Below, in pieces: positions 3,012 through 58,992 of a DNA stretch of 62,274 bases. A program made the position numbers and the translations under genes. Source of the stretch: a virus; IMG/VR virus record IMGVR_UViG_3300037419_000445; one strand, 5' to 3'. Below the pieces are notes generated by a model. It was not told where the DNA came from, searched no databases, and worked only from the letters and a program-made list of their open reading frames with translations. Positions within the stretch are counted from its first letter, which is position 1; each line of letters begins with the position of its first letter.

Positions 3012-3403
3012 ACCGCGTTTCAACAATCGCTGGGAACGTCGTTAAGCGTCCTTCCGGGAATCACCCTGATCCGGAGAGATGGGAGATTCTCCGCGAGTAT
3101 GCGCGTGACCGACAGCGATACGAGAGCGGCGAAGTGTACTGCGCGACGTGCCCAGAAACAGAGGGCGGGCAGCACCGTTTTGAGTTGCACCACAGGCATT
3201 ACAATTATTTTGGAGCAGAGCGCGTTGAAGACGTCGTTCTGCTGTGTGCGCCATGTCACGACGCAATCACAAACAGGCTTCGAAATTTTCGTTTGGCTCA
3301 TGGAGACATGACCATGACCGCAACCAACGACAACAAAAAGATTCAGAGATCGTCGTTCGTCGGAGCAAGCCGGATTAGCGATGTAACCAAGCTGTCAGCC
3401 TAG
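2945..3403 (+). CDS. HNH-like (His-Me finger) protein
   Basis: CATCPE...ELHHRHYNYF...LLCAPCHDAITN. The start is uncertain (ATG 2945/2963 or GTG 3008). It carries TNDN at 3323-3334. Confidence 0.55.
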   Translation: MRGALPMPPHSSDVAVEWDAQVNRVSTIAGNVVKRPSGNHPDPERWEILREYARDRQRYESGEVYCATCPETEGGQHRFELHHRHYNYFGAERVEDVVLLCAPCHDAITNRLRNFRLAHGDMTMTATNDNKKIQRSSFVGASRISDVTKLSA

Positions 3404-3441
3404 CTGAAGCATCACACGCGCAAGAGCGCAAGGAGAGAACA

Positions 3442-4065
3442 ATGGCACGTAAGACCTTTATCGTTGGCATACATCTTGCCGATTACATTCAGCACAACCC
3501 GCAGACAGCAATGCCTGCAAATAAATTCTACAAGGCTATGAAGGAGCTTACTGGCAAGCGCAAAAAGACCGACGCAGACCACGAGGCAATCGCCAATATT
3601 GAATACCACGCCGGCCTGTACATGAACGGCGCTGGCCAGGTTGTCTTGCCGAGTACGCAGTTTGAAGCAGCTATTGCGGAGGGCGCAAAAGTTTCAAAGG
3701 AAGGCAAGATTTGCCTTTCCTCAACCTTCGTTGAAGGCGACGCTGTTCTCTCATACGACGGCGGTCCTCTCTCGCTCGATGAACTACTCGCTAGTGAATC
3801 CCATCGCTTAGATGCGCTGGTTCGTGTCGGTATGGCGAAAACGATGCGGCGCCGACCTTATTTCACCAACGCTTGCGCTGATTTCCGAGTGTCTCTCGAT
3901 ACCGAGCAGGCAAACGCGGCGCAGTTGCGTCGTTGGGTGTTCGATGCGCTCAACATCAAGGGAATTGGAGATTGGCGCCCGCGACATGGTCGCGGTGAGA
4001 TTACGAAGTTCGAAGAGGCGCCTGTGTTGGTTACTGCGACAGCAGCGATTGCTCAAGCGGCATAA
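3442..4065 (+). CDS. hypothetical protein
   Basis: 207-aa ORF with an AAGGAGAG RBS. Confidence 0.6.
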   Translation: MARKTFIVGIHLADYIQHNPQTAMPANKFYKAMKELTGKRKKTDADHEAIANIEYHAGLYMNGAGQVVLPSTQFEAAIAEGAKVSKEGKICLSSTFVEGDAVLSYDGGPLSLDELLASESHRLDALVRVGMAKTMRRRPYFTNACADFRVSLDTEQANAAQLRRWVFDALNIKGIGDWRPRHGRGEITKFEEAPVLVTATAAIAQAA

Positions 4066-4082
4066 GTTCTTCTGTGTGGCTG

Positions 4083-4395
4083 GGCGAGGATTTCACGGCA
4101 CGGCAAGTACCCGGTTAGGCGTGGCCCGGTCGGGCGATCCCCGGCACGGCTAGGCAAGGATTTCGTGGTTTGGGTTGACAGAACACGGCACGGCCCGGTT
4201 TGGCACTGCGGGGAATGGCAAGGATTTTGTGGCCCGGCCAGTTTCGGAACGGCACGTCTTGGAATGGCTAGGAATGGCTAGGCATGGACATCGAGGCTCG
4301 GTGGGTTGGGGTTTGGTCCGGTCATGTTCGGTTCGGTTGGGCTAGATCGGGCACGGCAAGTCTAGGCACGATTCGGTTCGGCAAGGATTTCACGG
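4083..4395. repeat. Array of four 16-bp repeats GGC(A/G)AGGATTT(C/T)(A/G)(C/T)GG plus GGCACGGC sub-repeats in a 400-bp non-coding gap
   Basis: Copies at 4083-4098, 4153-4168, 4217-4232 and 4380-4395. GGCACGGCAAGT occurs at 4097-4108 and 4350-4361. Tandem GGAATGGCTA x2 at 4261-4280. Confidence 0.8.
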
Positions 4396-4420
4396 CAATA
4401 GCGGCGCGATAGCGCTTCAC

Positions 4421-4444
4421 AAAAGAAAAACCGCGCTTGCGCGG
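4421..4444 (-). terminator. Possible minus-strand intrinsic terminator
   Basis: The minus strand reads CCGCGcaagCGCGG followed by TTTTTCTTTT. On the plus strand the A-tract precedes the stem, so the orientation is minus. Confidence 0.3.
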
Positions 4445-4465
4445 CAATGGCGGAGCTTTCTCCAA

Positions 4466-4720
4466 ATGACACCACTTGAACAGACGCTCTACGCAATGAC
4501 CCGATTCAAAATGGAAGACGAAGTTGAGATCGCCGGCGAATTGATCGGAACCGTTACCGGGATTCAGGTCACCACGAGCGGTGAGGATACGTACAGGGTT
4601 TTCTATTTCGACAACGCCGAAAACCCGAAGGAAGAGTGGATTCGCGACTCCATGCTTTCGGAGGTCGACGACGAAGAAAGCAACGTGATTCCGTTTCCAG
4701 TTAGCCGCACGCGGCATTGA
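4466..4720 (+). CDS. hypothetical acidic protein
   Basis: 84-aa ORF with a GGAG RBS. Confidence 0.6.
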   Translation: MTPLEQTLYAMTRFKMEDEVEIAGELIGTVTGIQVTTSGEDTYRVFYFDNAENPKEEWIRDSMLSEVDDEESNVIPFPVSRTRH

Positions 4721-4731
4721 GGGAAAAGAAC

Positions 4732-6200: not shown

Positions 6201-6462
6201 CAACATCACCAACCTCAACGCACACCGCCCACTGCCGCTCGGCAGTGCGGCAGTCGTAAACCTGCAACAGGCACTCGCCTTTGGCGCCAGCGCAGCCAGC
6301 CTCCGATCTGTGGCCGACTGGAACGATCGGAAGTCTTACGAGGAGCGCCGTCGTAAGTCGCGCGCTCGGCACAAGAGTCAGGCCGCTGCGCTGCGTGTGG
6401 TGGCTGATGACATCGAAAGCATGCTGCAGCAGGCCAGTTACGGACCGAAGGAGGCGGCGTGA
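6190..6462 (+). CDS. hypothetical protein
   Basis: 90-aa ORF in operon register. Confidence 0.5.
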
Positions 6463-6680
6463 TGGGATACCGCATCGACTGGAAATCTGTCTCGCAGTGG
6501 GTTGGCACCGAAAAGACTGAACTTGAGGGCGAAGAAATTTACGCAACGCGCGAAGAGGCGGAACAGGCTGTGCGCGACATGCAGATGGACTCGTCTCTCA
6601 TGGGTGAGGTTCACGAAACTGCGGTTCAGGGGCAGGGCGTCGAAGGATGGCTCGCAATCGTATCTGTAGGAGCAGCCTAA
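6459..6680 (+). CDS. hypothetical protein
   Basis: 73-aa ORF with a GGAGGCGGCGTGATG junction. Confidence 0.5.
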   Translation: MMGYRIDWKSVSQWVGTEKTELEGEEIYATREEAEQAVRDMQMDSSLMGEVHETAVQGQGVEGWLAIVSVGAA

Positions 6681-7458: not shown

Positions 7459-8256
7459 ATGGCTATTTCATTAGGTTCGCTTAAGTCGACGAAGAAACAG
7501 GCGCAGGAGCGTCCCCCCATCCTGACGATCTACGGCGTAGACGGCGTTGGCAAGACTACGCTGGCTTCGGAATTCCCTTCGCCTGTTTACATCAGCACGG
7601 CAGGCGAGCGGGCTCCGTCAGACATCGACCTTCCTACGCCAGGTGTAGTAACGACGATTGACGATTTGTGGGACATCGTTGGCGAGTTGCTTGCTGGCGA
7701 GCACGAATTCAAGACTGTCATCATCGACAGCCTCGATGGACTCGAGCCGCTGATCTGGAAACGGACTTGCGCCCGTATTGGGGCAACGTCGATTGACGAC
7801 AGTAGCGCTGGATCTGTGGCTGCGTATGGTCGCGGATACCGTGAGGCCGACGTGGAGTGGAATGAACTAATTGACGCACTCAACGACTTGGTTGAGGCCG
7901 GCATGACGGTGGTTCTGCTTGCTCACCCCGGCATCGTGACGTTCAACTCGCCAATTTCAGATCCTTATTCTCGATACGAAATTAAACTTCACAAGCGCGG
8001 GGCCGCCCTCATCCGCGAGAAGTCGGACGTCGTGGCCTTCGTTAATTATCGGGTGACGCTGGTGAAGGCTGACCCGAAGAATCCGAAGTCTCACACCCAC
8101 GGCGAAGGCAAGGAACGCATCATCCACCTTTCCGAGAACGCTGGCTTCGTTGCTAAGTCGCGTTTTCCAACGCCGGACTCCATCAAGTACGTCAAAGGCA
8201 AGGGCTATTCTGAACTAGCCAAGTACTTCCCGCATGTGAGTGGGGAGGCGGCGTGA
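7459..8256 (+). CDS. Sak4-like RecA-fold ATPase (AAA_24-type recombination protein)
   Basis: Walker A is IYGVDGVGKTTLA and Walker B-like is VIIDSLD. The gene sits next to a DUF669-like gene, as in Sak4 modules. Confidence 0.75.
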   Translation: MAISLGSLKSTKKQAQERPPILTIYGVDGVGKTTLASEFPSPVYISTAGERAPSDIDLPTPGVVTTIDDLWDIVGELLAGEHEFKTVIIDSLDGLEPLIWKRTCARIGATSIDDSSAGSVAAYGRGYREADVEWNELIDALNDLVEAGMTVVLLAHPGIVTFNSPISDPYSRYEIKLHKRGAALIREKSDVVAFVNYRVTLVKADPKNPKSHTHGEGKERIIHLSENAGFVAKSRFPTPDSIKYVKGKGYSELAKYFPHVSGEAA

Positions 8257-8345
8257 TGGAGTTTGGCTTCTGGCTATCAATCATATCGCTGGCGGTGTCT
8301 TCGTTCTCTCTGGGCTTTGCCTTGCGTGGTTTGTTGGAAGGGTGA
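8256..8345 (+). CDS. possible 29-aa hydrophobic peptide
   Basis: MEFGFWLSIISLAVSSFSLGFALRGLLEG after a GGAGGCGGCGTGATG junction. Confidence 0.3.
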   Translation: MEFGFWLSIISLAVSSFSLGFALRGLLEG

Positions 8346-8571: not shown

Positions 8572-9144
8572 ATGGCACAACTTGGGACTAAATTTAACGC
8601 GCAAGAGCATGATACCGAGCAGCGTGATTACGAGAACCTGCCGGAAGGAATCTACAAGCTTGAGGTTACCGAGGCCGATGTTGCTGCTACCAAAAAGGGT
8701 GACGGCACGCTTCTGAAACTGCGCTACGGCGTGATTGAGCCGGAAGAGTATAAGGGCCGACTTATCTTCGGAAACATCACGCTCGAAAACCCGAACGCTC
8801 AGGCCCAGGAGATCGGCCAGAAGCAGCTCGCGAGCCTGTGCCGTGCGATCGGCCTGTCCGAGATCGAGGACAGCGACGAGCTGAAATTCCAGAGCTTCAC
8901 CGCGAAGGTTGGCTTGTCGAAGCGACGTGAAGTGGCCGGGACGACTTATGAGCCTCGCAACGAGGTGAAGCGGTACTACTTCCCCGACGCAGACGACATG
9001 CCTGAAATCGGCGTGATCGCTGCTGCACCTAAACCCGCCAACGATAACCGTCCTGCAAGCGGCGACGCCCGCACGACGCAGAACGGTGGCGCGGCGGCAA
9101 CTACTGCGGCGGGTGGCAAGAGCCGGCCTTGGGGTCGCAAGTAA
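8572..9144 (+). CDS. DUF669-like protein (putative phage ssDNA-binding protein)
   Basis: LPEGIYKLEVTEADV...GTLLKLRYGVIEPEEYKGRLIF pattern, adjacent to Sak4. The disordered C-tail carries PANDNRP (9037-9048). Confidence 0.65.
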   Translation: MAQLGTKFNAQEHDTEQRDYENLPEGIYKLEVTEADVAATKKGDGTLLKLRYGVIEPEEYKGRLIFGNITLENPNAQAQEIGQKQLASLCRAIGLSEIEDSDELKFQSFTAKVGLSKRREVAGTTYEPRNEVKRYYFPDADDMPEIGVIAAAPKPANDNRPASGDARTTQNGGAAATTAAGGKSRPWGRK

Positions 9145-10324: not shown

Positions 10325-11377
10325 ATGACCCTCTCTATTCAACGCGCCGATCTGGCGCGAATCCTTTCGCTCGCCACCAAAGCAACCGAGAGCCGCAATA
10401 CCATTCCGATTTTGGCCAATGTGCTGCTGATTGCGGACGGCAGCAATCTGCAGGTTATCGGCACCGACCTCGATATTGAATACAGCGCAAGTGCGCCATG
10501 CTCTGGCGAGCAGGGCAGCACCACGGTCGACGCGCGCCGGTTGGCCGACATCGCCAAGCGGTTGTCTGGCGATACGGTAACGCTAGAATTGAAGAACGGC
10601 GCGCTGGTGGTCAAATCCGGCCGTTCGCGCTTTAGCCTGCCTACCTTGGCGGTTGAAGACTTCCCGCGCCTCGATAGTGGCGTGTTCGATGCCGAGTTTA
10701 AGATTGATTTGGCCTCACTGGTCGCGCCGGTTAAGTTTGCAATGTCGTCGGAGCCGGCTCGGTATTACCTCAACGGCGTTTACTTGCACGAAGCAGAAGG
10801 CCAGTTGCGCGCGGTCGCCACTGACGGACACCGCTTGTCGCACAACAGCGTGGCGCACCCGATGCCAACCGCGCCCGGCGTCATTATTCCCAGCAAAACT
10901 GTTGGTCTTATCCCGGCTGGCGTTATCGACGTTGGGCTGTCGAAAAACAAGGTGCGCCTCGCCACTGCCGACACCATCATTGTGTCGAAGCTGATCGATG
11001 GCACGTTCCCAGATTACGTTCGGGTCATTCCCCATGGCAATGACAAGCAACTGACCGTTAGCCGCAAGGAGTTAGCGAGTGCAGTTAGCCGCGTGGCGTC
11101 CATTGCGTCAGAACGCAGCCGAGCGGCTAAGTTCTCGTTGGCCGGCGACAACATCGCAATATCGATGACGTCGGACGAGGGCGCAGCCCGAGAGGACGTG
11201 CCTGCAACATACAGCGCCGAGCCGTTGGAGATTGGGTTCAACAGCGCATACGTGGGGGACGTGTTGGGCGCGCTGACTGGCGATGAAATCACAGTGTCGC
11301 TGGGTGACCCAGGTTCGCCTGCCTTGTTTCGTGGGGCCGGCGAAGGACAAATCGTTTTGATGCCGATGAGGGTATGA
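10325..11377 (+). CDS. dnaN: DNA polymerase III beta subunit (sliding clamp), phage-encoded
   Basis: LSIQRADLARILSLATKATESRNTIPILANVLLIADGSNLQVIGTDLDIE...FPDYVRVIP...LMPMRV gives full-length DnaN architecture. Confidence 0.9.
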   Translation: MTLSIQRADLARILSLATKATESRNTIPILANVLLIADGSNLQVIGTDLDIEYSASAPCSGEQGSTTVDARRLADIAKRLSGDTVTLELKNGALVVKSGRSRFSLPTLAVEDFPRLDSGVFDAEFKIDLASLVAPVKFAMSSEPARYYLNGVYLHEAEGQLRAVATDGHRLSHNSVAHPMPTAPGVIIPSKTVGLIPAGVIDVGLSKNKVRLATADTIIVSKLIDGTFPDYVRVIPHGNDKQLTVSRKELASAVSRVASIASERSRAAKFSLAGDNIAISMTSDEGAAREDVPATYSAEPLEIGFNSAYVGDVLGALTGDEITVSLGDPGSPALFRGAGEGQIVLMPMRV

Positions 11378-12212: not shown

Positions 12213-13175
12213 GTGGCACCACTTCCGCAGGTAATTAGTCCAACGCTCAAAGCCGTGCGCCGTGCATTGGAGTCTGGTCACGACGATTGGGAGTCTGTCG
12301 GCGTGCCTGCCGGTGACATCGGAGTTGAGTGCGACAGGGCCATCTGGTTCTCGTTCCGCCGGGCGTCTCCGAAGGAGGAAATCAACTGGAAGACTCGGCG
12401 CATCTTTGAACGAGGCAATATCGAGGAGCCCCGCTTACTAGATCTGCTGCGGTCTATTGGTTGCACGGTATGGGGCGAGCAAGACCGCGTTCGGGCTGTC
12501 GGCGGACATCTCCGCGGAAAGATAGATGGGCGCGGGCTTGGAATTCTGGAGGCGCCGTCCAAAGAGCACGTCATTGAGTGCAAGTCTGCCAAGCAAGAGA
12601 AATTCGCGCCAGTTAAGAAGAATGGCGTGAAAATCGCTATGCCACTGCATTACGCCACCTTCCAGTTTTATATGCACGGGCTCGGTATCGATCGCGTTTT
12701 CTACATGATGTCGAATAAGAACGACGAGGATTTGCACTTTGAGCGCGTGCCTTACGATGCAGACTTCGCCATTCGAGCAGTCGCTAGGATTGAACGCATC
12801 GTGAATATGCCAAACCCACCTTCGCGGTTGTGTACTAAGCGTGACGACTTCCGCGGGATGTTCTGCCGGCAGCAAGAGGTTTGCTGGGGAGAGCGCAAGC
12901 CTCGAGCTCATTGCAGAACGTGTATCCATTCCACGCCACTGATGGACGGCAACGCTGGGTGGGACTGTTCGCGCTGGCAAAAGCCGTTGTCGCTTGAAGA
13001 GCAGGACGCTGGGTGCCCTGCGCATTTGTTTATCCCGCAAACGTTAGTTGGGTACGAGCAAGTGGACGCTGACGAAGAAGCTGAGACGATTACGTATCGG
13101 CGTGAGAGCGACGGTAAAACGTGGGTTGATGGCGCGGCGAACGACAACGACGGCGAGAAGGAGAATGCGGCGTGA
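12213..13175 (+). CDS. PD-(D/E)XK nuclease (Cas4/RecB-like exonuclease) with a C-terminal Cys cluster
   Basis: GKIDGRGL...HVIECKSAK is the D...E-x-K core. The Cys cluster is CTKRDDFRGMFCRQQEVC...CRTC...C...C. The C-tail carries AANDND (13137-13148). Confidence 0.65.
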   Translation: MAPLPQVISPTLKAVRRALESGHDDWESVGVPAGDIGVECDRAIWFSFRRASPKEEINWKTRRIFERGNIEEPRLLDLLRSIGCTVWGEQDRVRAVGGHLRGKIDGRGLGILEAPSKEHVIECKSAKQEKFAPVKKNGVKIAMPLHYATFQFYMHGLGIDRVFYMMSNKNDEDLHFERVPYDADFAIRAVARIERIVNMPNPPSRLCTKRDDFRGMFCRQQEVCWGERKPRAHCRTCIHSTPLMDGNAGWDCSRWQKPLSLEEQDAGCPAHLFIPQTLVGYEQVDADEEAETITYRRESDGKTWVDGAANDNDGEKENAA

Positions 13176-13399
13176 ATATTGAACCGTACCAGTCGACTGC
13201 TCTGCAGATTATGAAACTGGCGAATGAACAAGCAGACGCCACCAAACTAGCATTTGACGCGCTCATTGAGATTGACCGAATCTGCCGTACCCCAACCTCG
13301 GCCGGAGAAAAGGCTGGTCGGCACTTTCAGCGAGACTTCGACGCAATCCGTAGGCTTACTGCTCCGTTCTGCGCCCCCTCCCACCCGGTGGCAGCATGA
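13172..13399 (+). CDS. hypothetical protein
   Basis: 75-aa ORF with a GTGA overlap. Confidence 0.45.
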   Translation: MNIEPYQSTALQIMKLANEQADATKLAFDALIEIDRICRTPTSAGEKAGRHFQRDFDAIRRLTAPFCAPSHPVAA

Positions 13400-13917
13400 C
13401 CAAAGCCCGCACCCACCCGCACGCCAATGATAATAGGCCAGCTTGGTTCGACGCACTTCTGGTGCAGTACATGCCGTTCCTGCATCGAAAGTGTACCGAC
13501 CAAGCCAAGGGAGTCGACCGCGAAGACCTGGCGCAGGAGGCGATGAGGTACATCCTCGACTATTGGTACAGGTTCCGCAGCGATGGAATTTTCACATCGT
13601 GGGTTACGCTGATGGTGAGTGAGGCGCGCAGAGATATGATGCTGCGCCATGACAAGGGCGCAAGAGCCAAGGAGTCTGTAGCGGTGCTGCAATCATACTC
13701 GCCAGCTTCGCAGGAGAGTGCAGCCATGTTGTCAGAGACGTCCGATCGATTGGGTGACGCGGCACCACTAGCTGCAATGATCGGCGCTGGCTTTAGCCAA
13801 GCTGAGATCGGCGCCGCCACTGGTGTGAGCATTTTTACTGTTGAGCGTCGCGTCAAGGCGATGCGCGGGCTGCTGGCCGCCAACGAGAACCGAAAGTCAG
13901 TTCGGAAGGCTGGTTGA
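13396..13917 (+). CDS. sigma-70 family (ECF-like) RNA polymerase sigma factor
   Basis: Region 2-like is EDLAQEAMRYILDYWYRFRSDGIFTSWV. Region 4 HTH is GFSQAEIGAATGVSIFTVERRVKAMRGLL. The N-terminus carries HANDNRPAW (13423-13434). Confidence 0.7.
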   Translation: MTKARTHPHANDNRPAWFDALLVQYMPFLHRKCTDQAKGVDREDLAQEAMRYILDYWYRFRSDGIFTSWVTLMVSEARRDMMLRHDKGARAKESVAVLQSYSPASQESAAMLSETSDRLGDAAPLAAMIGAGFSQAEIGAATGVSIFTVERRVKAMRGLLAANENRKSVRKAG

Positions 13918-14262
13918 ATGCGATTGGTGGTGACTGGAGGGCGAGACTACAGCGACACAGCAGCGGCATTCGCTGCGCTGGATGATCTACACGCGTGCAA
14001 ACCAATTACAGTACTAATTCAAGGCGAGGCTCGTGGGTTAGATGCACGCGCAAAGAATTGGGCATTTCGGCGCGGTGTTCCCTGCGCCAGCTTCGCAGCG
14101 CAGTGGGATAAATACGACAAAGACGCTGGCGGAATACGGAATCAACAAATGATTGATGAAGGAAAGCCGGACTACGGATTGGTTTTCCCCGGTGGGTATG
14201 GGACTGCGGATATGCGGCGAAGGCTGGTTGCTGCGGGAATACCGTTTGAGGATGTGAAGTGA
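13918..14262 (+). CDS. DUF2493 / SLOG-family (YspA-like) protein
   Basis: RLVVTGGRDY...VLIQGEARGLDARAKNWA...AGGIRNQQMI...VFPGGYGTADM. Confidence 0.6.
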   Translation: MRLVVTGGRDYSDTAAAFAALDDLHACKPITVLIQGEARGLDARAKNWAFRRGVPCASFAAQWDKYDKDAGGIRNQQMIDEGKPDYGLVFPGGYGTADMRRRLVAAGIPFEDVK

Positions 14263-15995
14263 TGCCTCTTCGTTATTACCAGAAGGAATCGCTTAAGGCG
14301 GTGTTTGACTATTGGGATAAGCATCCCGGCCACCCTCTTGTCGATATGGCTACTGGAGTTGGAAAGTCTATCACGCAGGCAACGCTGGCCATGGACCTTA
14401 TTAAGGGCTGGCCGGATATGCGTGTGATGTCGGCAACGCACGTTGTTGAATTGATTGAAGCTAATTTCAAGGAGCTTATTGGTATCTGGCCGTTTGCCCC
14501 AGCGGGTATTTGTGCGGCGTCGCTTGGACAGCGTGACTTCAGATCGCAAATCATATTCGCGCAACTGCAGACTGTCTGGAATAAGGCTGCGCAGATTGGA
14601 CACATCGATGTTCTAATCATCGATGAGGTGCATCTTGTGCCTGCAAAAGCTAACACGATGTATCGCAAGCTTATTGATGCCTTGCTGGTCATAAATCCAG
14701 ACATGAAGATTGTCGGTTATAGCGCCACGCTTTACCGGCTTGATAGCGGGCGACTGGATGAAGGTGACGACAAGCTATTCGATCAGGTTGTTTACGAGTA
14801 CGGCATTCGTCGCGGCATTGAAGATGGCTACCTCTGCCCGATAACGTCTAAACCGACAGGAACCAAGTACGACCTATCCGGTGTTGGAAAGTCGATGGGG
14901 GACTATAAGCTGAGCGATTATCGCGCTGCGGTTGATACCGAGATATTAAACAAGCGCGTGGTCGAAGAGGTCATGGACGTCGAAGGCCACAGGAAGTCGG
15001 CGCTGTTCTTCTGTCGTGGGGTGGAGCACGCCACACATATGAGGGATATGGTGCAGGCGGCTGGCCGCACTTGTGAGATCGTTCACGGCGGGACGCCATC
15101 AACGGTGCGGCGTAAGTTAATCGCAGCCTTGAAGGCCGGTGAAATATGGGCGCTTAGCAACGACAATGTATTATCGACTGGAACCAATATCCCGGGTGTG
15201 GATCTAATTGTTGACACCTATAAAACTCTTTCTGCCGGCCGTTATGCGCAGCGCGTAGGTCGTGGCACGCGAGTTATCTACCCTCACGGGTTTGACCCAG
15301 AAGCAGTCGACGCAACTGAAAGGCGTGCGGCTATCGCATCGGGTATCAAGCCAAATTGTCGTTACATGGACTTTGCCGGAAACATCGATGCTCACGGTCC
15401 AGTGGACATGATTAATCCTAAGAAGCCCGGCAAGGGTGAGGGACAAGCACCGATCAAAATCTGCCCGACGTGCGAGGAAATTAATCACGCGAGTGTCCGT
15501 GTGTGCTCGTGCTGTGGATTCGAATTTGAATTTAACACCGCCCCGAAGTTCACTGCCCGTGCAAGCGACGCACCAATTATATCGAGCGACACGCCAAACT
15601 GGCGCACTGTTACAGGTCGCCATTTCAGGGAACACCCGGCCAAGCCTGGGAAGCCCCCGAGCGTGCGTGTGGATTACAAGCTCGGCATGAATGTTCAGAA
15701 GGATTACTTGTGCCCTCAACATGGCGGGCGCGCTGCGGCGAAGGCTTGTAGGTATTGGAAGGACCACGCTGGGAAGTTTCCATATCCAAAAACGACTGCG
15801 GAATGGCTAGACCGGGTAGGAGAACTTCTTACGACTGTAGAGATTGCGACTGCGCCAGATAAGGACAATCCGCGCTACATTAACGTAAGGGATTGGCGCG
15901 CTGGTTCTGCTACGCAAGTTGCCGAACCAGCAAACGACAACTGGAAGCCGCTGATGGCGGCGGGTGATGATTGGGCGGAGGATATACCGTTTTGA
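14259..15995 (+). CDS. SF2 DEAD/DEAH-box DNA helicase with a Zn ribbon
   Basis: Motif I is DMATGVGKS and motif II is IIDEVH. Further motifs are SATLYR and QRVGRGTR. The ribbon is CPTCEE...CSCCG. The C-tail is PANDNWKP...DDWAEDIPF. Confidence 0.85.
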   Translation: MMPLRYYQKESLKAVFDYWDKHPGHPLVDMATGVGKSITQATLAMDLIKGWPDMRVMSATHVVELIEANFKELIGIWPFAPAGICAASLGQRDFRSQIIFAQLQTVWNKAAQIGHIDVLIIDEVHLVPAKANTMYRKLIDALLVINPDMKIVGYSATLYRLDSGRLDEGDDKLFDQVVYEYGIRRGIEDGYLCPITSKPTGTKYDLSGVGKSMGDYKLSDYRAAVDTEILNKRVVEEVMDVEGHRKSALFFCRGVEHATHMRDMVQAAGRTCEIVHGGTPSTVRRKLIAALKAGEIWALSNDNVLSTGTNIPGVDLIVDTYKTLSAGRYAQRVGRGTRVIYPHGFDPEAVDATERRAAIASGIKPNCRYMDFAGNIDAHGPVDMINPKKPGKGEGQAPIKICPTCEEINHASVRVCSCCGFEFEFNTAPKFTARASDAPIISSDTPNWRTVTGRHFREHPAKPGKPPSVRVDYKLGMNVQKDYLCPQHGGRAAAKACRYWKDHAGKFPYPKTTAEWLDRVGELLTTVEIATAPDKDNPRYINVRDWRAGSATQVAEPANDNWKPLMAAGDDWAEDIPF

Positions 15996-16222
15996 TTTAC
16001 CTATACGTGACATTGCGAGAGCGACTTTATGAAGCGTCAATCAACGGCAACGAGCTTGCGCACGAAGCCGTGGAGGAAATCAACAGACTGGATAAGATCA
16101 TTAAAGACCTAACTTCAAGCGCAGTACCAGCATTGCTGGCGTCAAAAGCAGGGATGCTGCTTGGTGACGAATTCACAGAGCGACTTGAGAAATCTGTTGC
16201 TAATGCGAGAAAGTGCGCGTGA
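15992..16222 (+). CDS. hypothetical coiled-coil protein
   Basis: The track ORF is 15971-16222. The TTG at 15992 follows GGAGGA and overlaps the helicase stop as TTGA. Confidence 0.4.
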   Translation: MIYLYVTLRERLYEASINGNELAHEAVEEINRLDKIIKDLTSSAVPALLASKAGMLLGDEFTERLEKSVANARKCA

Positions 16223-16782
16223 TGGCAAAAATAGGTTACGCAGACCCTCCGTACATCGGTTGCGCTCACCTCTACAAAGACCACCCGGATTTTGCCGGAG
16301 AGGTAGATCATGCCGCGTTAATCGAGAGGCTGGAGTCTGAATATGATGGATGGGTGCTTCATGCTTCTGCAACACCTACCAGCATGGCCGTCCTTGCGCC
16401 TCTGGTAGCCAAGACATCGGCGCGCTGGTGTTCATGGGTGAAGGGCTTTGCAGCATTCAAACGCAACGTTCCGGTAGCCTACGCATGGGAGCCGGTCATT
16501 ATCAAACCTGCTCGCAAGCCGGTTGTCAGCAAGCGGCAGGTGAACCGCGACTGGATTCAAGAAAGCATCACCCTCAAGCGCGGCCTGACAGGCGCGAAGC
16601 CGGAAGCCGTCTGCCATTGGGCTTTCGAACTATCAGCTGCGCGACCTGACGACGAACTAGACGACATGTTTCCGGGCACTGGCGCAGTAGGTCGCGCGTG
16701 GAAAACATGGCAGGGCAAGTTCACGCTTCCTGCCAACGATAACTCTCCTTTATTCGCTACTGCGCAGCGTAGCGCGCAATAG
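16222..16782 (+). CDS. minimal beta-class DNA methyltransferase (N6A/N4C type)
   Basis: The N-terminus has GYADPPY and the C-terminus has DDMFPGTGAVG, which is the beta-class order of motif IV before motif I. The tail carries PANDNSPLF. Confidence 0.65.
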   Translation: MAKIGYADPPYIGCAHLYKDHPDFAGEVDHAALIERLESEYDGWVLHASATPTSMAVLAPLVAKTSARWCSWVKGFAAFKRNVPVAYAWEPVIIKPARKPVVSKRQVNRDWIQESITLKRGLTGAKPEAVCHWAFELSAARPDDELDDMFPGTGAVGRAWKTWQGKFTLPANDNSPLFATAQRSAQ

Positions 16783-16839: not shown

Positions 16840-17091
16840 ATGACTAACAATAAGCCACAAGACGGCAAACAATCCCGCCGCGCCAGCCTAGCCGAGAGCC
16901 TGGCCAACATCGCAATCGGCTATTGCGTAGCAATAGCGGCACAAGTCGTCATCTTTCCTTTGTTCGGGATTCATATCGGTGCAGGTGAGCATGCTGCCAT
17001 CGGCGCGCTATTCACGGCTGTGTCGCTCGTTCGCAGCTATGCGTTGAGGCGGTTGTTTGAGACGTTGCGGGTTAGTGGGGTGCTTTCGTAA
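16840..17091 (+). CDS. small membrane protein
   Basis: SLANIAIGYCVAIAAQVVIFPLFGIHIG...AIGALFTAVSLV. Confidence 0.5.
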   Translation: MTNNKPQDGKQSRRASLAESLANIAIGYCVAIAAQVVIFPLFGIHIGAGEHAAIGALFTAVSLVRSYALRRLFETLRVSGVLS

Positions 17092-18527: not shown

Positions 18528-18868
18528 CCGACCTCATCGGCACATGCGCAATCTGCAAACGCAGGCACGCGAACATCGGCTGGGCTGCGTCGGAGCGCCA
18601 CCCAGTTAAATGGGAGTGCAAGGAATGCCTGCAATTACCAATCGAACAAGTTAAGAGGTTTCACCACATGGCGCGCAAAGCATTAGACCGGTTCGAGGAA
18701 CAGGCGCTGGAGGAGGGCGGAAATGCTGGTGGCTCGTTCCTGGACGAGATCGGGAAGACGGACCTCGCAGCGCTAGACGACTACGAATGGCGCGAGTTTC
18801 TGCGGCGCGTTCTGGTTGGTTACGCGGATGGGATGCGGGAGATTGTTGGCCGTGAGGTGCCGTTTTGA
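18524..18868 (+). CDS. hypothetical protein with an N-terminal CxxC...CxxC
   Basis: CAICKRRH...WECKEC in a 114-aa ORF. Confidence 0.55.
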   Translation: MTDLIGTCAICKRRHANIGWAASERHPVKWECKECLQLPIEQVKRFHHMARKALDRFEEQALEEGGNAGGSFLDEIGKTDLAALDDYEWREFLRRVLVGYADGMREIVGREVPF

Positions 18869-19659
18869 TGAGCGTTGAATTGCACAACGGTGATTGCTTG
18901 GACATCCTGCCGACGCTTGCGCCCGGCAGTGTGGATTTGATCCTGTGCGATTTGCCGTATGGGACGACGGCCTGCAAATGGGACGAGATCATTCCACTCG
19001 ATAGAATGTGGGAGCAGTATTGGCGTGTTGCCAAGCCAAGTGCTGCTATTGTGTTGACCTCGCAGCAGCCATTCACGGCAAAGCTTACGATGAGCCAAGC
19101 GAATTTCTTTCGTTACAACTGGGTGTGGGACAAGGGGTATTCAACTGGGTTTGCCAACGCAAACAAAATGCCGATGAGGGGTTTCGAGGACGTCTTGGTG
19201 TTTTACCGCAAATTGCCGACGTATAACCCTCAAGGTCTTGTAGATATCCCTCCAAAAATAAAGAAGCGCGCGTCTGGCGGCGGTGGCGAGGTTATGGGTA
19301 AGAACGGAACCGAGGGCAAGGAGTACGTTTCAACAAAAACCAACTACCCAAACGGAATCATCACCACAAAGAAGGAAGGCAAAACCGTACACCCCACCCA
19401 AAAACCAGTTGCGTTGATGGAATACCTAATCCGCACCTATACCAATCCGGGCGATATCGTCCTAGACAATTGCATGGGCTCAGGCACCACTGGCGTTGCG
19501 GCAGTCAACACCGGACGACGGTTTATCGGCATTGAACGTGACGCGGACTATTTCGCGATTGCGCGCAAGCGCATTGGCGAAGCGCAACCCGTACCCGCAC
19601 CAACACCGGCCAACGACAACATGCCGCCATCTGCAGACTTGTTCGGAGAAGCCGCATGA
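18865..19659 (+). CDS. beta-class DNA adenine methyltransferase (CcrM-like architecture)
   Basis: Motifs are ILCDLPYG, HPTQKP and DNCMGSGTTG. The C-tail is PTPANDNMPPSADLFGEAA. Confidence 0.85.
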   Translation: MMSVELHNGDCLDILPTLAPGSVDLILCDLPYGTTACKWDEIIPLDRMWEQYWRVAKPSAAIVLTSQQPFTAKLTMSQANFFRYNWVWDKGYSTGFANANKMPMRGFEDVLVFYRKLPTYNPQGLVDIPPKIKKRASGGGGEVMGKNGTEGKEYVSTKTNYPNGIITTKKEGKTVHPTQKPVALMEYLIRTYTNPGDIVLDNCMGSGTTGVAAVNTGRRFIGIERDADYFAIARKRIGEAQPVPAPTPANDNMPPSADLFGEAA

Positions 19660-53206: not shown

Positions 53207-53292
53207 TCCATTCCTCGCCGTCAACACGATAGGGGCGATCATGATTGTGCTTATTGCCGTGTACTTCCTTTTCCCAAAATGGCGGTGAACTG

Positions 53293-54582
53293 ATGCCGAC
53301 TCCTCCGGTAACTGACGACGAATTGAAGGCCACTGTCGCCGCGTATAATGCGGCACAGGGCGACCAATCTGCCGCCGCTGATGCGATGGGGCTTGCTCGC
53401 AGCACACTCCAGAACCGGCTTAAAAGGGCGGCGGAGAGGGGGTTGATGGGGACCGCTGCTGTGCTGCCGGGTTTTAGGATTGCGAAGATTACCAACTCGC
53501 CCCATGGCGACACCGTTCAGCAGAAGCCAGAGCGGGGCGAGCCGTACAAGCCTATCGACGCTTTGGCCCTCAAGGGCCGCACCTCTTGGAATGATATTCT
53601 TCCAGACGGTTCGCGCATTGCCACGCGCGAAGTCGTCATGGAGCGGGCGGAAGCCAAGGCGCAGATGGACGCCATGCGCGCCGCTGTGGCGGGGTTCAAG
53701 GATGAGATTCCGCGCGTAGATGCGATTGTTCCCGTGCCGCTCTGGACCGCGCCCGATCTGCTCTGCATGTACGCCGTAACTGACGCCCACATGGGCTGTC
53801 TTTCTTGGCATGAGGAAACCGGTGACGAGGACTACGACCTCTCCATTTCCGAAAAGCTATTAGAAGATTGGTTCTGTGCCGCGATAGATATGGCACCGCG
53901 CGCACAAACCGCAGTACTCGCACAACTAGGAGATCTTCTCCATCACGATTCGCATGAAAGCGTCACGCCAGCACACCGCAACGTTCTTGATGCGGATTCT
54001 CGTTTTCAGAAAATGGTACGCGTTGCCATTCGAGTGCTTCGAAAAGTAATTGCGAGACTTCTGACGAAGCACGAGTTCGTTCATATTGTCATGGCAGATG
54101 CTAACCACGATCCCGCCAGCGAGGCGTGGTTGCGTGAAATGTTCGCAGCGTTCTATGAGAACGAGCCTCGCGTTACGGTCGATAACAGCGCTGGCACGTA
54201 CTACGTTTATAAGCACGGTGACGTGTCTCTATTTTTTCATCACGGTCATCGTCGCGGAGTCAATAACGCCGACTCTGTGTTCGCTGGGCGATTCCGAGAA
54301 ATCTATGGCAGCACAAAATTCAGCTACGCGCACCTTGGGCACAAGCACAGCGACGAATTGAAAACTACCAACCTTATGAAGGTTGAGCAGCATGAGACGT
54401 TAGCGGCTCCAGACGCCTATGCGGCGAACGGTGGGTGGCTGTCCGGTAGGTCGGCGAAAGTAATCGTCTACCATAAAGCGTTCGGCGAGGTTAGCCGGGT
54501 CACTCTGACGCCTGGAATGGTTGCTGGTGCTTCTACGAAACCGATTGCAGCAAACGATAATGAAGTTCGGAGGGCGGCGTGA
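53293..54582 (+). CDS. HTH-containing metallophosphoesterase-like protein
   Basis: The HTH is AMGLARSTLQNRLKRAAE. The phosphoesterase-like motifs are VTDAHMG, LGDLLHHD, MADANHD and FHHGH. The C-tail carries IAANDNEVRRAA. Confidence 0.55.
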   Translation: MPTPPVTDDELKATVAAYNAAQGDQSAAADAMGLARSTLQNRLKRAAERGLMGTAAVLPGFRIAKITNSPHGDTVQQKPERGEPYKPIDALALKGRTSWNDILPDGSRIATREVVMERAEAKAQMDAMRAAVAGFKDEIPRVDAIVPVPLWTAPDLLCMYAVTDAHMGCLSWHEETGDEDYDLSISEKLLEDWFCAAIDMAPRAQTAVLAQLGDLLHHDSHESVTPAHRNVLDADSRFQKMVRVAIRVLRKVIARLLTKHEFVHIVMADANHDPASEAWLREMFAAFYENEPRVTVDNSAGTYYVYKHGDVSLFFHHGHRRGVNNADSVFAGRFREIYGSTKFSYAHLGHKHSDELKTTNLMKVEQHETLAAPDAYAANGGWLSGRSAKVIVYHKAFGEVSRVTLTPGMVAGASTKPIAANDNEVRRAA

Positions 54583-54890
54583 TGCGATGTGATGGATGCC
54601 AGCATTGGAAAAAGGAATCAGAGAACGAAGAGTGGGAGGCGAAAGAGGCTGGCTTCGGAGAGTGCCTAGCGGTGCGGGAGCGCTGGCGAATCACGGACGA
54701 GGTTTCATCAAAACCATATGAGGCAGACAGTGACGAGGAGGAAAATAGTTTCGTCGCGATGCGTACTTCAGCGCTTCAGGCAGCCCGAGCCTATGTGCAG
54801 GATGGCAGTCAGTATCGCGCCGAATTATTCACCGCACCAGACTTCTTTTGCGCGCTGTTTGATGCCGCCACGCCAGTAGGTGCGGCATGA
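54579..54890 (+). CDS. hypothetical protein
   Basis: 103-aa ORF with a GGCGGCGTGATG junction. Confidence 0.5.
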   Translation: MMRCDGCQHWKKESENEEWEAKEAGFGECLAVRERWRITDEVSSKPYEADSDEEENSFVAMRTSALQAARAYVQDGSQYRAELFTAPDFFCALFDAATPVGAA

Positions 54891-57515: not shown

Positions 57516-57550
57516 CGCCCACCAACCGAAGCTGGCGGGCGTTTCTATTT
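57516..57550 (+). terminator. Rho-independent terminator after the tRNA-like element
   Basis: CGCCCaCCA-accgaagc-TGGcGGGCG followed by TTTCTATTT. Confidence 0.5.
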
Positions 57551-57613
57551 GCCTGCCCCACGCCGCCGGCTTCTTTCGCCACGGTTTGCGGGTGTGGGCG
57601 GGGTGCATCACTT

Positions 57614-57631
57614 GGTAACGCTATGGTAACG
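57614..57631. repeat. Pair of GGTAACG direct repeats in 11-bp register (arm-type integrase site candidate)
   Basis: GGTAACGctatGGTAACG. Confidence 0.4.
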
Positions 57632-57732
57632 AATAGGCTCGATGTTCTTTGTCCGTTCCCACCAAACTACAATAAATTCTCTTGTGATTTCAATGATACG
57701 GGTAATGAAACAGAAGTGGAGGCTTCTGTTGC

Positions 57733-57763
57733 CGCTAAAAGAAACCCTTATTTCATTAGGGTT
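57733..57763 (-). terminator. Possible terminator downstream of int
   Basis: The minus strand reads AACCCTaatgaaataAGGGTT followed by TCTTTT. Confidence 0.4.
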
Positions 57764-57774
57764 ATGCGTCACTC

Positions 57775-57792
57775 GGTAACTCTACGGTAACG
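57775..57792. repeat. Second pair of GGTAAC(G) direct repeats in 11-bp register
   Basis: GGTAACtctacGGTAACG, abutting the int stop codon. Confidence 0.4.
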
Positions 57793-57793
57793 A

Positions 57794-58792
57794 TTACCGA
57801 GCGTCTGCGGCAGTGTGCTGCCAGTCGGGATGATGGTGTCCATACGTCTTTTGAAACACCGTTATCGACATGCCGAGCGACTCTGCGGCCTCGTATGGAT
57901 CTACACGTTGACGCAGAAGGTGCGTTGCGCGCGAGTGACGCAACACATGTGGATGCACATCGTGAAGTTTGGATTCAGCGCGAGCTTTATTCCAGCCCTT
58001 AGCAACCCTCTCCACGCTCTTGCCGCGGTACTCCACGACGTATTTGGAGTCCGGTGACATACGACGCCAGCGCCGCAGATGGCCTATCAGGCGCCTTCCT
58101 ATGCGGACTGGCGGTGCTCGCTTCTTGGTCTGGGTGGTTCCGGGCCGCTGGCGGTAGAGAAGGCCGGCCATTAGGTCGATTTGGTCCCACTGCAACTTCA
58201 TGAGGACGGTGGCGCGACTGCCGGTGTACCAGCCAAGCAGGAAGAACCGTGCGATGTGCTCGCAGTCGGCCTGCCTACGGATATGGCGCAAGAACTTCGC
58301 GGCTTCGGGGATAGTAAGCCATCGCTGGCGCGGGAGTGGCTTTTCCGGTCGCTTTATCGTTGGTACGCGGATTGGGTGGTAGTTCTTGCTCCAATGCCTC
58401 AGGGCGGTCTCTAGGAAGCCCAGCTCACGGCGCACGGTGGTTTTACCGCCACGGTGCTTGGTGTATTTCTTGACGTTGTCGGCGGTGATTTCTGAGGCCC
58501 GCTTATCCCCCCACCACTTGCCGAGGCGAACGAGGTCGTTGCTTATGGAATCTTCCGATGGAAGCCCTTCGACATGGTCCCGCTGATAGGCAAGTATAAC
58601 ATCGCAAATTTTCGGGTTTGGGTCGCCGTCCGGCCTGTGATTTCTAGCTATGTATTCCGCAAGAGCTTTTTGCGCTGCGCTATCCTCGCCAAGAGAATAT
58701 CCTGTGCGGATACGTTTGTTTCCGTCGACGATCGTCCACGAATTTCTTGACTTGTCCTGCCAGAGGCGCGGGCCTGAACTTCTACGCGGCAT
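57794..58792 (-). CDS. int: tyrosine recombinase (phage integrase)
   Basis: RLWQDKSRNSWTIVDG at the N-terminus. The catalytic region is HVLRHSRATHLLRQRVDPYEAAESLGMSITVFQKTYGHH. Confidence 0.9.
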   Translation of the reverse strand: MPRRSSGPRLWQDKSRNSWTIVDGNKRIRTGYSLGEDSAAQKALAEYIARNHRPDGDPNPKICDVILAYQRDHVEGLPSEDSISNDLVRLGKWWGDKRASEITADNVKKYTKHRGGKTTVRRELGFLETALRHWSKNYHPIRVPTIKRPEKPLPRQRWLTIPEAAKFLRHIRRQADCEHIARFFLLGWYTGSRATVLMKLQWDQIDLMAGLLYRQRPGTTQTKKRAPPVRIGRRLIGHLRRWRRMSPDSKYVVEYRGKSVERVAKGWNKARAESKLHDVHPHVLRHSRATHLLRQRVDPYEAAESLGMSITVFQKTYGHHHPDWQHTAADAR

Positions 58793-58992
58793 AGTTCTCG
58801 CATTTCCTTGATTGCCGCCAATGTTACAAAATGCTTACCGGCGATCAACTCCAGATTTAGCCGTCCTTTGGCGTACTCCTGGCGTAATCCTGACACAGTC
58901 ATCCCCCCTGCAGGGAAGGCATATTCTAACGCACGCGCCAGTCGGAGCGGAGCGTCGTCTGGCGGTGTGTTATCATTCGCCGCCCGCGTCAT
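58648..58992 (-). CDS. Xis-like / small DNA-binding protein upstream of int
   Basis: TVSGLRQEYAKGRLNLELIAGKHFVTLAAIKEMRELC. The N-terminus is MTRAANDNTPP. It overlaps the int start by 145 nt in another frame. Confidence 0.5.
   Translation of the reverse strand: MTRAANDNTPPDDAPLRLARALEYAFPAGGMTVSGLRQEYAKGRLNLELIAGKHFVTLAAIKEMRELCRVEVQARASGRTSQEIRGRSSTETNVSAQDILLARIAQRKKLLRNT

Follow-up and report, generated by a model that had tools for sequence, protein, structure and literature searches.

ANDN, the opening tetrapeptide of alpha-proteobacterial ssrA tags, recurs in terminal tails of unrelated proteins in a lineage of Rhizobiales phages

Introduction

What does it mean when one and the same tetrapeptide recurs, mostly close to an end of the chain, in unrelated proteins of a single virus? 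The question is raised by the IMG/VR virus record IMGVR_UViG_3300037419_000445, a stretch of DNA of 62,274 bases (hereafter the window, meaning the whole stretch analysed), in whose deduced proteins a first-pass annotation, made from the sequence alone, had noticed repeated copies of Ala-Asn-Asp-Asn (ANDN). That annotation regarded the motif as unlike any described before, and proposed that it could be a site of docking, processing or modification read by a common partner. The motif does have a described counterpart: judging from published tag sequences, ANDN corresponds to the first four residues encoded by transfer-messenger RNA (tmRNA) in the ssrA tags of alpha-proteobacteria, and the corresponding module of the Escherichia coli tag is the site bound by the adaptor SspB. 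Here we describe the occurrence of the motif in the window and in its relatives, and weigh the possible explanations for it. The best of these, in our opinion, is that the phage genes encode mimics of the ssrA tag, which would probably feed their carriers to the host adaptor SspB-alpha and the protease ClpXP.

Occurrence of the motif in the window

When the window was scanned in all six frames, ANDN was found exactly 13 times, 12 times on the plus strand and once on the minus strand. Each of the 13 copies follows the strand and the coding frame of an open reading frame (ORF), the plus-strand copies being distributed over all three forward frames, and the other frames contain none. These are the same 13 copies, at the same coordinates, that the first-pass annotation had listed; its NDN variants (TNDN at 3323, DNDN at 20553, ENDN at 21267, ADNDND at 23515 and 32085, and M-NDN at 23768) are also all present.

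Statistics on the window were computed on a hand-curated set of 101 genes (19,349 amino acids), obtained from a codon-usage gene caller or by inspection; the automatic caller gave 97 proteins. From residue frequencies, 0.18 copies of ANDN are expected against the 13 observed (Poisson P = 2.8e-20), and when residues were shuffled 5000 times within each protein, the copies averaged 0.18 and never numbered more than 3. The rough initial estimate of well under one expected copy, for which a comparison with shuffled proteomes and non-coding frames had been recommended, agrees with these figures. Among all tetrapeptides of the window proteome, ANDN ranks first by over-representation and by frequency, the runner-up having a P of about 1e-5. 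Residue-frequency expectation, shuffling and ranking together rule out chance or composition as the source of the motif. The tripeptide NDN is likewise in excess (20 observed vs. 1.6 expected), and the related tetrapeptides ANDE, ANDD, ANDS and ANDT are present in one, one, two and one copies, respectively, vs. the 13 copies of ANDN, which speaks for specificity towards the alpha type of tag.

Selection acts on the peptide and not on a DNA word, as had been maintained from the start, because synonymous codons at the ANDN sites are mixed and used roughly as in the whole genome, with a modest preference for GCC and GAC, and because the 30-base DNA flanks of the 13 sites are unrelated, their identity (0.29/0.28) being close to that of random pairs (0.26). 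A dispersed DNA repeat or an in-frame mobile insertion was considered and rejected on account of the random identity of the flanks, the mixed codons and the position in frame of all 13 copies. As regards location, 11 of the 13 copies are no more than 31 residues from a terminus; the preceding residue is Ala or Pro at 11 sites (Ala at six of the 13), and a Pro follows within three residues at nine. Both the terminal position and the proline- and alanine-containing context described in the first-pass annotation are thus substantiated. Wherever Pfam detects a domain in a carrier, ANDN lies outside it.

Conservation in related phages and prophages

The structural genes of the window show about 69% DNA identity to those of Sinorhizobium phage NV1.1.1. 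Relatives of the window helicase (59-61% amino acid identity) were found in prophage regions of four genomes, namely those of Agrobacterium rosae, a Bosea species, an uncultured Rhizobiaceae bacterium and a proteobacterial metagenome-assembled genome, and 29 further relatives were found in IMG/VR. A lysogeny module is recognizable in the window, all on the minus strand: a tyrosine integrase is preceded by a small upstream ORF, and a candidate repressor of the S24 type (LexA/CI-like) is also encoded (Table 1). Because of the integrase, the S24-type repressor and the relatives listed above, the window is assigned to a temperate phage, or prophage, of Rhizobiales. ARAGORN detected neither tRNA nor tmRNA genes in the window, an Rfam scan gave no match at the gathering threshold, and no tRNA or tmRNA fragment that could serve as an attP marker was detected there.

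The motif is common to NV1.1.1, which has 20 copies, and to 33 related prophage or viral contigs. In the 36 loci of the lineage (705 kb), 255 copies of ANDN were counted, and the main coding strand accounts for 240 of these; the 964 proteins called in the lineage contain 230 copies vs. 1.7 expected, and 20.6% of these proteins carry the motif. Since relatives share ancestry, lineage totals are not made of independent events, and cluster counts are a fairer measure: the lineage proteins form 435 similarity clusters, of which 50 contain ANDN, and 27 contain it as a C-terminal tag. Many unrelated families must therefore have either gained the motif or retained it. Its context throughout the lineage (Ala in 47% and Pro in 31% of cases at position -1, Pro in 44% at +2) gives the consensus [A/P]-A-N-D-N-x-[P].

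Comparison of orthologues, which had been suggested as a check, confirmed that the motif is conserved in related phages. One or two copies of ANDN, in addition to SNDN or DNDN, are present in 27 of 33 helicases, whose tails are otherwise unalignable and end with D-[DE]-IPF; ANDN is kept in 29 of 31 DUF669 proteins, in a tail that is otherwise variable; and all five sigma-factor-like orthologues found have M-T-P-x-P-ANDN-x-RP at the N-terminus, with the motif 3-6 residues after the probable initiator Met. Among 32 orthologues of the 320-aa (amino acid) protein, 11 have an ANDN tag, and the others have VNDN or SNDN, or just an Ala-Ala end. In 13 of 17 related methyltransferases, ANDN stands beside a DLF or DMF motif, in either order. 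In some orthologue tails, ADNDN, SNDN or VNDN takes the place of ANDN. On the evidence of these comparisons, ANDN is a short linear motif located in terminal, unalignable tails, and the description given of it by the first-pass annotation holds in this respect.

Similarity to ssrA tags

The ssrA tag of Agrobacterium tumefaciens is ANDNNAKEYALAA, of 13 residues (PMC12493166, Table 1), and that of Caulobacter, including the alanine borne by the tmRNA, is AANDNFAEEFAVAA, with SspB as the adaptor that delivers tagged proteins to ClpXP (PMC9393093). The counterpart of the N-terminal module of these tags, (A)ANDN, is found at all 13 window sites. The distance from ANDN to the C-terminus, determined on six-frame ORFs of at least 60 residues from the 36 loci, peaks sharply at 10-14 residues (8, 16, 23, 20 and 11 cases at the distances from 10 to 14), so that the tag length and the spacing of the modules are near the native ones of 13-15 residues. 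There are 72 distinct C-terminal tags in the lineage (15 of 11 residues, 14 of 12, 15 of 13 and 11 of 14), of which 47 end with Ala-Ala and 13 more with [TVC]A; the residue before ANDN is Ala in 56% of the C-terminal tags of the lineage, as it is in the native tag. Look-alikes of the whole tag are found at the ends of proteins of the relatives, such as AANDNTETVTKKAA, AANDNQPVKEAA, AANDNFSDKSEVAA, ANDNHHVAKVAA, ANDNYAAKAAA and dozens more. In the window, a free C-terminal Ala-Ala characterizes the C-terminal sub-class represented by the two ssrA-tag-like ends of Table 1, and is missing from the N-terminal, internal, helicase and DUF669 copies. Because they are in-frame parts of ORFs, and because the window is devoid of tmRNA genes, the phage sequences are mimics and not true tags, which tmRNA and SmpB add co-translationally.

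A companion signal, overlooked in the first-pass annotation, is the abundance of Ala-Ala ends. In E. coli, the terminal Ala-Ala of ssrA-like degrons is critical but insufficient for recognition by ClpXP (PMC10862746). Of the 101 window proteins, 22 (22%; about 1.3 expected) end with Ala-Ala, including the portal protein, the major capsid protein and the primase, and 34 end with Ala. With the automatic caller, the figure is 21 of 97 proteins for the window and 20 of 88 for NV1.1.1, vs. a range from 1 of 50 to 7 of 53 in four unrelated phages of alpha-proteobacteria, while in the whole lineage it is 268 of 964 (27.8% vs. 1.2% expected).

A recurrent gene junction, GAGGCGGCGTGATG, is found for example at 6451-6464, 8245-8258 and 54571-54584; it combines a Shine-Dalgarno-like GAGG, Ala-Ala codons and a stop codon overlapping the next start (GTGA or ATGA), and indicates tight translational coupling. 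The hypothesis that Ala-Ala ends are a mere by-product of such junctions was discarded, because the alanine codons at these ends vary, many ends using codons other than those of the junction, and because many of the genes have no overlapping downstream start.

To look beyond the lineage, a DNA pattern built from the phage tails (GCC AAC GAY AAY, then 21-27 bases, then GCN GCN TRA, which covers the GCCAAC codon subset) was searched in IMG/VR. At least 120 matches were obtained, and 109 of the 120 listed have an in-frame gap, vs. about 43% expected by chance. Among the listed matches, ARAGORN recognized tmRNA genes in 53 loci, and in 52 of them the tag is ANDN...[LV]AA, 13-15 residues long; many of these genes are of the permuted type, which is typical of alpha-proteobacteria. 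Another 36 of the matches listed are C-termini of long ORFs, in contigs with 52-66% G+C. Also among the listed matches, C-terminal ANDN tags are present in several contigs without tblastn similarity to the proteome of the window phage (e.g. L045/L161/L068 and L050/L101/L130/L145), so that the motif recurs in independent lineages. An analogous scan with ANDE, the start of gamma- and beta-type tags, gave mostly real tmRNA genes, and ORF-embedded ANDE was not above the out-of-frame background among the matches listed. The ANDE comparison is just suggestive, but it may mean that the phenomenon is confined to hosts with tags of the ANDN type.

Of the viral contigs that the tag patterns picked out (L046-L162; L165 onward), roughly half contain complete tmRNA genes, 53 and 50 by ARAGORN among the matches listed, and many of these genes are permuted. 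Either the phages themselves carry these tmRNAs, or the genes belong to host DNA flanking prophages that have integrated at ssrA.

A host replicon and four other phages served as controls. A 250 kb portion of data from Sinorhizobium meliloti pSymB (192 called proteins, about 70,000 amino acids) contains no ANDN, and eight of its 192 proteins (4%) end with Ala-Ala, so that a general property of host proteomes can be dismissed. Rhizobium phage RHph_Y21 has one ANDN and five Ala-Ala ends in 66 proteins, Paracoccus phage Shpa has no ANDN and three such ends in 53 proteins, and Brucella phage 177_141 has no ANDN in coding frames and one such end in 50 proteins. Rhizobium phage RHph_Y3_1 (L007), which is temperate and otherwise unrelated, has two copies, both of the form P-ANDN-x-P (within APVPANDNTPAVK and LKPANDNKPARP), and seven Ala-Ala ends in 53 proteins, which hints at a weaker form of the same strategy outside the lineage. 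With counts of one, zero, zero and two copies, a general property of alpha-proteobacterial phages was also rejected. The strong enrichment of ANDN is lineage-specific, because the control replicon and phages are near zero.

Carriers of the motif and neighbouring sequences

The carriers, the variants and the other genes mentioned in the text are collected in Table 1. Pfam matches were obtained for DUF669, the SF2 helicase, two N6_N4 methyltransferases, HNH, the Prim-Pol/AAA_25 primase, DnaN, S49 and the integrase, and a weak match to Sigma70_r2 was below the curated cut-off. The carrier labels initially proposed for the DUF669 protein, the helicase, these two methyltransferases, the HNH protein, the primase and, weakly, the sigma factor could thus be retained, while Pfam gave no match for the labels PD-(D/E)XK nuclease, VRR-NUC, third methyltransferase, metallophosphatase, Xis-like and sugar-transfer protein. 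In the 445-aa protein, which had been labelled as a helix-turn-helix (HTH) metallophosphatase, HTH_30 is the only domain found by Pfam.

Table 1. Positions in the window of the ANDN copies, their variants and the other features discussed in the text.
Feature	Position	Strand	Gene or protein and remarks
ANDN, context KP-ANDN-RP	9037-9048	+	DUF669 protein (8572-9144); Pro/Ala-rich C-terminal tail, 31 aa from end; domain at residues 17-130, motif at 156
ssrA-tag-like C-terminus AANDNDGEKENAA	13134-13175	+	320-aa protein (12213-13175), labelled PD-(D/E)XK nuclease; 12 aa from A of ANDN to end; Ala-Ala end
ANDN at residue 10, context H-ANDN-RPAWF	13423-13434	+	Sigma-factor-like protein (13396-13917); N-terminal
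ANDN in C-terminal tail	15930-15941	+	SF2 helicase (14259-15995); 17 aa from SSB-like end AEDIPF
ANDN, context LP-ANDN-SPLF	16732-16743	+	189-aa protein (16213-16782); 12 aa from C-terminus; labelled methyltransferase, no Pfam match
Tail QP-ANDN-EPSPQSSPSQLDIFGAAA	18459-18527	+	N6_N4 methyltransferase (17091-18527); ANDN, clamp-binding-like QLDIF and Ala-Ala end; domain at residues 30-439, motif at 457
Tail TP-ANDN-MPPSADLFGEAA	19609-19659	+	Second N6_N4 methyltransferase (18865-19659); domain at residues 23-234, motif at 249
Internal ANDN, residue 68 of 220	23969-23980	+	Protein 23768-24430; start M-NDN-RTP (23768-23779), end -YAA
ANDN at residue 13, context AA-ANDN-KP	25174-25185	+	HNH endonuclease (25138-25833); N-terminal
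Second ANDN, residue 152 of 231	25591-25602	+	HNH endonuclease (25138-25833); just upstream of HNH domain (169-221)
ANDN, context RA-ANDN-FY	40697-40708	+	217-aa tail-module protein (40151-40804); 31 aa from C-terminus; no Pfam match
ssrA-tag-like C-terminus AANDNEVRRAA	54547-54582	+	445-aa HTH protein (53245-54582); NV1.1.1 orthologue ends with AANDNVPVEQKRVA
N-terminal ANDN, MTRA-ANDN-TPP	58969-58980	-	Small ORF (58648-58992) adjoining the integrase; labelled Xis by position alone
Variant TNDN	3323-3334	+	HNH-like protein (2945-3403); 25 aa from C-terminus
Variant I-ADNDND-P	23515-23532	+	162-aa protein (23086-23574); near C-terminus
Variant V-ADNDND-P	32085-32102	+	Head-module ORF (31905-32354)
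Variant DNDN	20553-20564	+	Prim-Pol/AAA_25 primase (19656-21944); internal; primase end -GEAA
Variant ENDN	21267-21278	+	Same primase; internal; like DNDN, probably not part of the system
Examples of Ala-Ala ends	4057-4065, 8248-8256, 21936-21944, 29455-29463, 31873-31881		
S24-type repressor candidate	1905-2738	-	Lysogeny module
Tyrosine integrase	57794-58792	-	Lysogeny module
DnaN	10325-11377		The phage's own beta clamp
S49 protease	29506-30624		Head module, between portal and capsid genes

Several of the tails that carry ANDN also bear other recognizable sequences. The two N6_N4 methyltransferases end with the clamp-binding-like sequences SQLDIFGAAA (18498-18527) and SADLFGEAA (19633-19659), and in their orthologues DLF, DMF or SLF is found beside ANDN, in either order; given that the phage encodes its own DnaN, these sequences would suggest methyltransferases tethered to the clamp. 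The end of the helicase (15978-15995), (D-W-A-)E-D-I-P-F, is similar to the tail of the single-stranded DNA-binding protein (SSB); D-[DE]-[IV]-P-F is found in nearly all the orthologues, and 45 of the 964 lineage proteins end with -PF. The DUF669 tail ends (9100-9144) with the basic motif R-P-W-G-[KS]-K, located downstream of ANDN in nearly all orthologues, which may be a second docking motif.

Looser or similar tails were also seen on the portal protein and on proteins that may resemble it. The tail of the window portal protein (28168-29463) has the loose variant AANTNEKPVPAAPKKAA at its end. Other viral contigs (L049, L051, L056, L090, L116 and others) encode proteins of about 410-460 residues with full terminal tags, for example PP-ANDNNQDEAEEAA, and these proteins, judged by their size alone, may be portal-like.

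Discussion

The E. coli ssrA tag is made of two modules: AANDENY is bound by SspB, and ALAA by the pore of ClpX (PMC8512704). On its own, AANDENY is bound by SspB but does not lead to degradation; when the C-terminus is weakened, degradation comes to depend on SspB; and tandem AANDENY is degraded with SspB even without ALAA (PMC8512704). As for alpha-proteobacteria, an adaptor for tmRNA-tagged proteins is credited to Lessner et al. (2007) in the article that cites it (PMC8138137).

We propose that the phage proteins exploit this machinery. ANDN would dock its carrier onto the host adaptor SspB-alpha, and the cargo would thus be tethered to ClpX; the terminal Ala-Ala, where present, would be the degron that binds the ClpX pore. 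Carriers with both modules, in the layout (A)ANDN-x7-9-AA-COOH, would be adaptor-enhanced substrates of ClpXP. Those with ANDN only, such as the helicase (often with tandem copies), the DUF669 protein, and the sigma factor, HNH and Xis-like proteins with their N-terminal copies, would likewise be tethered to SspB and ClpX, and could be engaged through another end, or might merely occupy the adaptor. The pay-off may be short, tunable half-lives for DNA enzymes and regulators that are potentially toxic (nucleases, methyltransferases, helicase, sigma factor, Xis-like protein), which would accumulate just when their synthesis outruns or saturates ClpXP. That SspB-alpha binds the motif, that ClpXP degrades the carriers and that this serves regulation is what we infer from the resemblance to the tag, and on balance we judge this the best explanation, with a confidence that is moderate rather than high.

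As regards the common reader that had been postulated, a host factor is indeed the most plausible, while the phage candidates put forward with it gained no support. A host reader is favoured over a phage one because ANDN is found in contigs that share no detectable proteins with the window phage and in the unrelated phage RHph_Y3_1, and because no member of the SspB, ClpX, ClpP or ClpS families was found by Pfam among the 76 window proteins scanned. As to the beta clamp, one of these candidates, the tails of the methyltransferases have next to ANDN a hydrophobic motif of the clamp-binding kind that is separate from it (QLDIF, ADLF); the S49 protease is encoded in the head module; and sugar-transfer genes, the third candidate, were not confirmed by Pfam.

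Several observations weigh against tag mimicry as the explanation. The role of ANDN as a determinant of SspB-alpha binding is deduced from homology with the E. coli module. Native tags have A, E or Y at +2, while the phage motif has Pro there in 44% of cases, and Pro at -1 in 31%; the preferences of the reader of the phage motif may therefore differ from those of the reader of native tags. Many carriers have no Ala-Ala end (the helicase ends with IPF, the DUF669 protein with RPWGKK) or have the motif at the N-terminus, and these cannot be simple ssrA-type degrons; since the antepenultimate residue is often E, K, R or D and not L, weak recognition by ClpX is predicted. Structural proteins end with Ala-Ala too, such as the major capsid and portal proteins, and proteins of about 410-460 residues are ANDN-tagged in other contigs; neither would be expected of a signal for degradation alone, and both would be explained better by a decoy role, or by a quality control that removes subunits left unassembled, than by regulated turnover of a simple kind. 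In addition, the Shine-Dalgarno/overlapping-start junction GAGGCGGCGTGATG shapes part of the -EAA ends. Finally, the enrichment is absent from other alpha-proteobacterial phages such as Paracoccus phage Shpa and the Brucella phage (no copies in either), whose hosts presumably have ANDN-type tags.

The resemblance to the tag could be a coincidence, and ANDN could dock its carriers to some partner outside the ssrA pathway, such as a replication hub of the phage (DnaN, the DUF669/SSB-like protein or another ORF) or another host protein. Most carriers in the window are DNA-transaction enzymes clustered at 8.5-26 kb, their tails bear other hub motifs (the clamp-like QLDIF and ADLF, the SSB-tail-like DIPF), Pro at +2 is not seen in native tags, and N-terminal and internal copies suit a C-terminal degron poorly. 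Nevertheless, the identity with the tag, the native length, the Ala-Ala ends and the Ala at -1 in 56% of the C-terminal tags would make an improbable coincidence. Moreover, clamp-binding (QL[SD]LF) and SSB-tail motifs contain hydrophobic residues, which ANDN lacks, and ANDN is found in tail proteins, in contigs with no detectable homologues of the window phage proteins, and in RHph_Y3_1, whose annotation lists no DnaN. We consider such a partner unlikely, although it is the most serious competitor. Slightly less likely again is a decoy function, in which many proteins with ANDN and/or an Ala-Ala end would saturate SspB-alpha and ClpXP by proteolytic queueing and stabilize other substrates of host or phage origin (cell-cycle regulators, ssrA-tagged products, antitoxins), without the carriers themselves being regulated. 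The wide spread of the signals (the motif on about 20% of proteins, Ala-Ala ends on about 25%, abundant structural proteins included) would suit this purpose, as would the tandem copies in helicase tails, and carriers with ANDN but no ClpX degron, such as the helicase and DUF669 proteins, would bind the adaptor without being consumed, as AANDENY alone does in E. coli. On the other hand, one dedicated, strongly expressed inhibitor would be simpler than the alteration of at least 50 protein families, and the native-like spacing to Ala-Ala in 27 families looks like that of productive degrons.

That the motif marks a site of processing or modification, where the S49 head protease (or else a peptidase of the host) would cut, or where an Asn or Asp would be modified, seems very improbable. 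Its near-terminal position would indeed yield short leader or trailer peptides, and the phage does encode an S49 protease, but its gene is found between those of the portal and the capsid, where prohead proteases, which act inside procapsids, are usually encoded, and most carriers are non-structural; Pfam confirmed no sugar transferase or modifying enzyme; and the fixed spacing to Ala-Ala and the identity with the ssrA tag would be left unexplained. Practically no credit can be given to a word at the DNA or RNA level (GCNAAYGAYAAY), to dispersed repeats or to the idea that linkers rich in Pro and Ala contain the motif by an accident of composition: the modest codon preference at the sites would agree with such an origin, but all 13 copies follow the coding strand and frame, across three forward frames, with mixed codons and random flanks, shuffling yields 0.18 copies on average, and neither Rfam nor ARAGORN revealed any element.

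If the phage sequences are mimics of the ssrA tag, a bolder view can be taken, which we offer as speculation that is unlikely to prove correct as a whole: a fifth to a quarter of the proteome would be plugged into the ribosome-rescue quality control of the host, and the capacity of ClpXP and SspB would act as a global timer or switch. Leaky expression from the prophage would be erased, while the lytic burst would saturate the protease, stabilizing all the tagged proteins and blocking the turnover of host ClpXP substrates, e.g. cell-cycle regulators. In alpha-proteobacteria, ClpXP is essential and drives the cell cycle.

Our literature search found no report of a proteome-wide mimic of the ssrA tag in phages. 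If the proposed reader is right, this would be, to our knowledge, the first instance in which a virus has made a portable motif of the adaptor-binding half of the tag and placed it on dozens of proteins that are unrelated to one another. The C-terminal tags, of which more than 70 distinct ones were seen and in which linkers and antepenultimate residues vary, would then be a natural library of SspB-alpha/ClpXP degrons, useful to dissect the specificity of adaptor and ClpX, and could provide tags for the controllable depletion of proteins in Sinorhizobium, Agrobacterium and their relatives. There would also be a testable mechanism to explain why nucleases, methyltransferases and regulators of temperate phages do no harm in lysogens and yet are abundant in lytic growth, and the signature (near-terminal ANDN plus -AA ends) would predict host clade and protein turnover for uncultured viral contigs.

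Comparison with known systems

The native alpha-proteobacterial tag, with SspB-alpha and ClpXP, shares with the phage sequences its first four residues, often the preceding Ala, the length (13-15 residues vs. 10-14 in the C-terminal sub-class) and the Ala-Ala-COOH end. The phage version differs in that it is encoded in the genes and not added by trans-translation, has Pro at +2, and has E, K, R or A before the final Ala-Ala where the native tag has [YA]-A-L; in addition, many phage copies are isolated, being located at an N-terminus or at a distance from any Ala-Ala end.

Genome-encoded Ala-Ala ends are themselves a known recognition element of ClpX, in the C-motif-1 substrates ending with -LAA or -AA; alpha-proteobacterial cell-cycle proteins are examples, and their AA-to-DD mutants are stable. 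However, these substrates have no upstream ANDN module, and Ala-Ala ends, which 22-28% of the proteins have in the phage lineage, are limited to a few percent in the host (4% in pSymB). A closer parallel to the two-module layout is offered by the engineered SspB-dependent degrons (AANDENY-...-DAS, and AANDENY used as a handle), in which an adaptor module and a weak ClpX module give tunable degradation; ANDN with -EAA, -KAA or -RAA, or ANDN alone, is arranged in the same way. The engineered degrons are synthetic and based on E. coli, whereas the phage versions are natural and of the alpha type.

The beta-clamp-binding motif QL[SD]LF and the SSB tail D-D-D-I-P-F are, like ANDN, short sequences of terminal, disordered tails common to many DNA enzymes, and all of them are found in the same phage tails. 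Unlike these, ANDN is polar and lacks a hydrophobic anchor, it is present in addition to the clamp and SSB motifs, and it extends to proteins unrelated to DNA, so that it does not qualify as a clamp motif.

Phages are known to intervene in this pathway from the opposite side as well, since a gene for an SspB of its own is described in a phage of Pseudomonas (PMC5587285). The closest natural precedent, as far as the published summary goes, is the integration-dependent immunity of mycobacteriophages, in which integrase and repressor carry ssrA-like C-terminal tags and ClpXP-type proteolysis sets the lysis-lysogeny decision (Broussard et al., 2013, summarized in PMC9635641). In both cases, going by that summary, phage genes would encode their own ssrA-like degron and host ClpXP would set the levels of the proteins. 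In the window, the integrase (ending with TAADAR) and the repressor candidate (ending with RVLAF) are untagged, so that the arrangement is not that of integration-dependent immunity. Again within the limits of the summary, the mycobacteriophage system concerns two regulators with a ClpX-type C-terminal tag alone, in an actinobacterial host without SspB, and the repressor tag is lost on integration, while the lineage described here has an adaptor-type module, ANDN, in at least 50 protein families, with N-terminal and internal copies as well, in phages of alpha-proteobacterial hosts.

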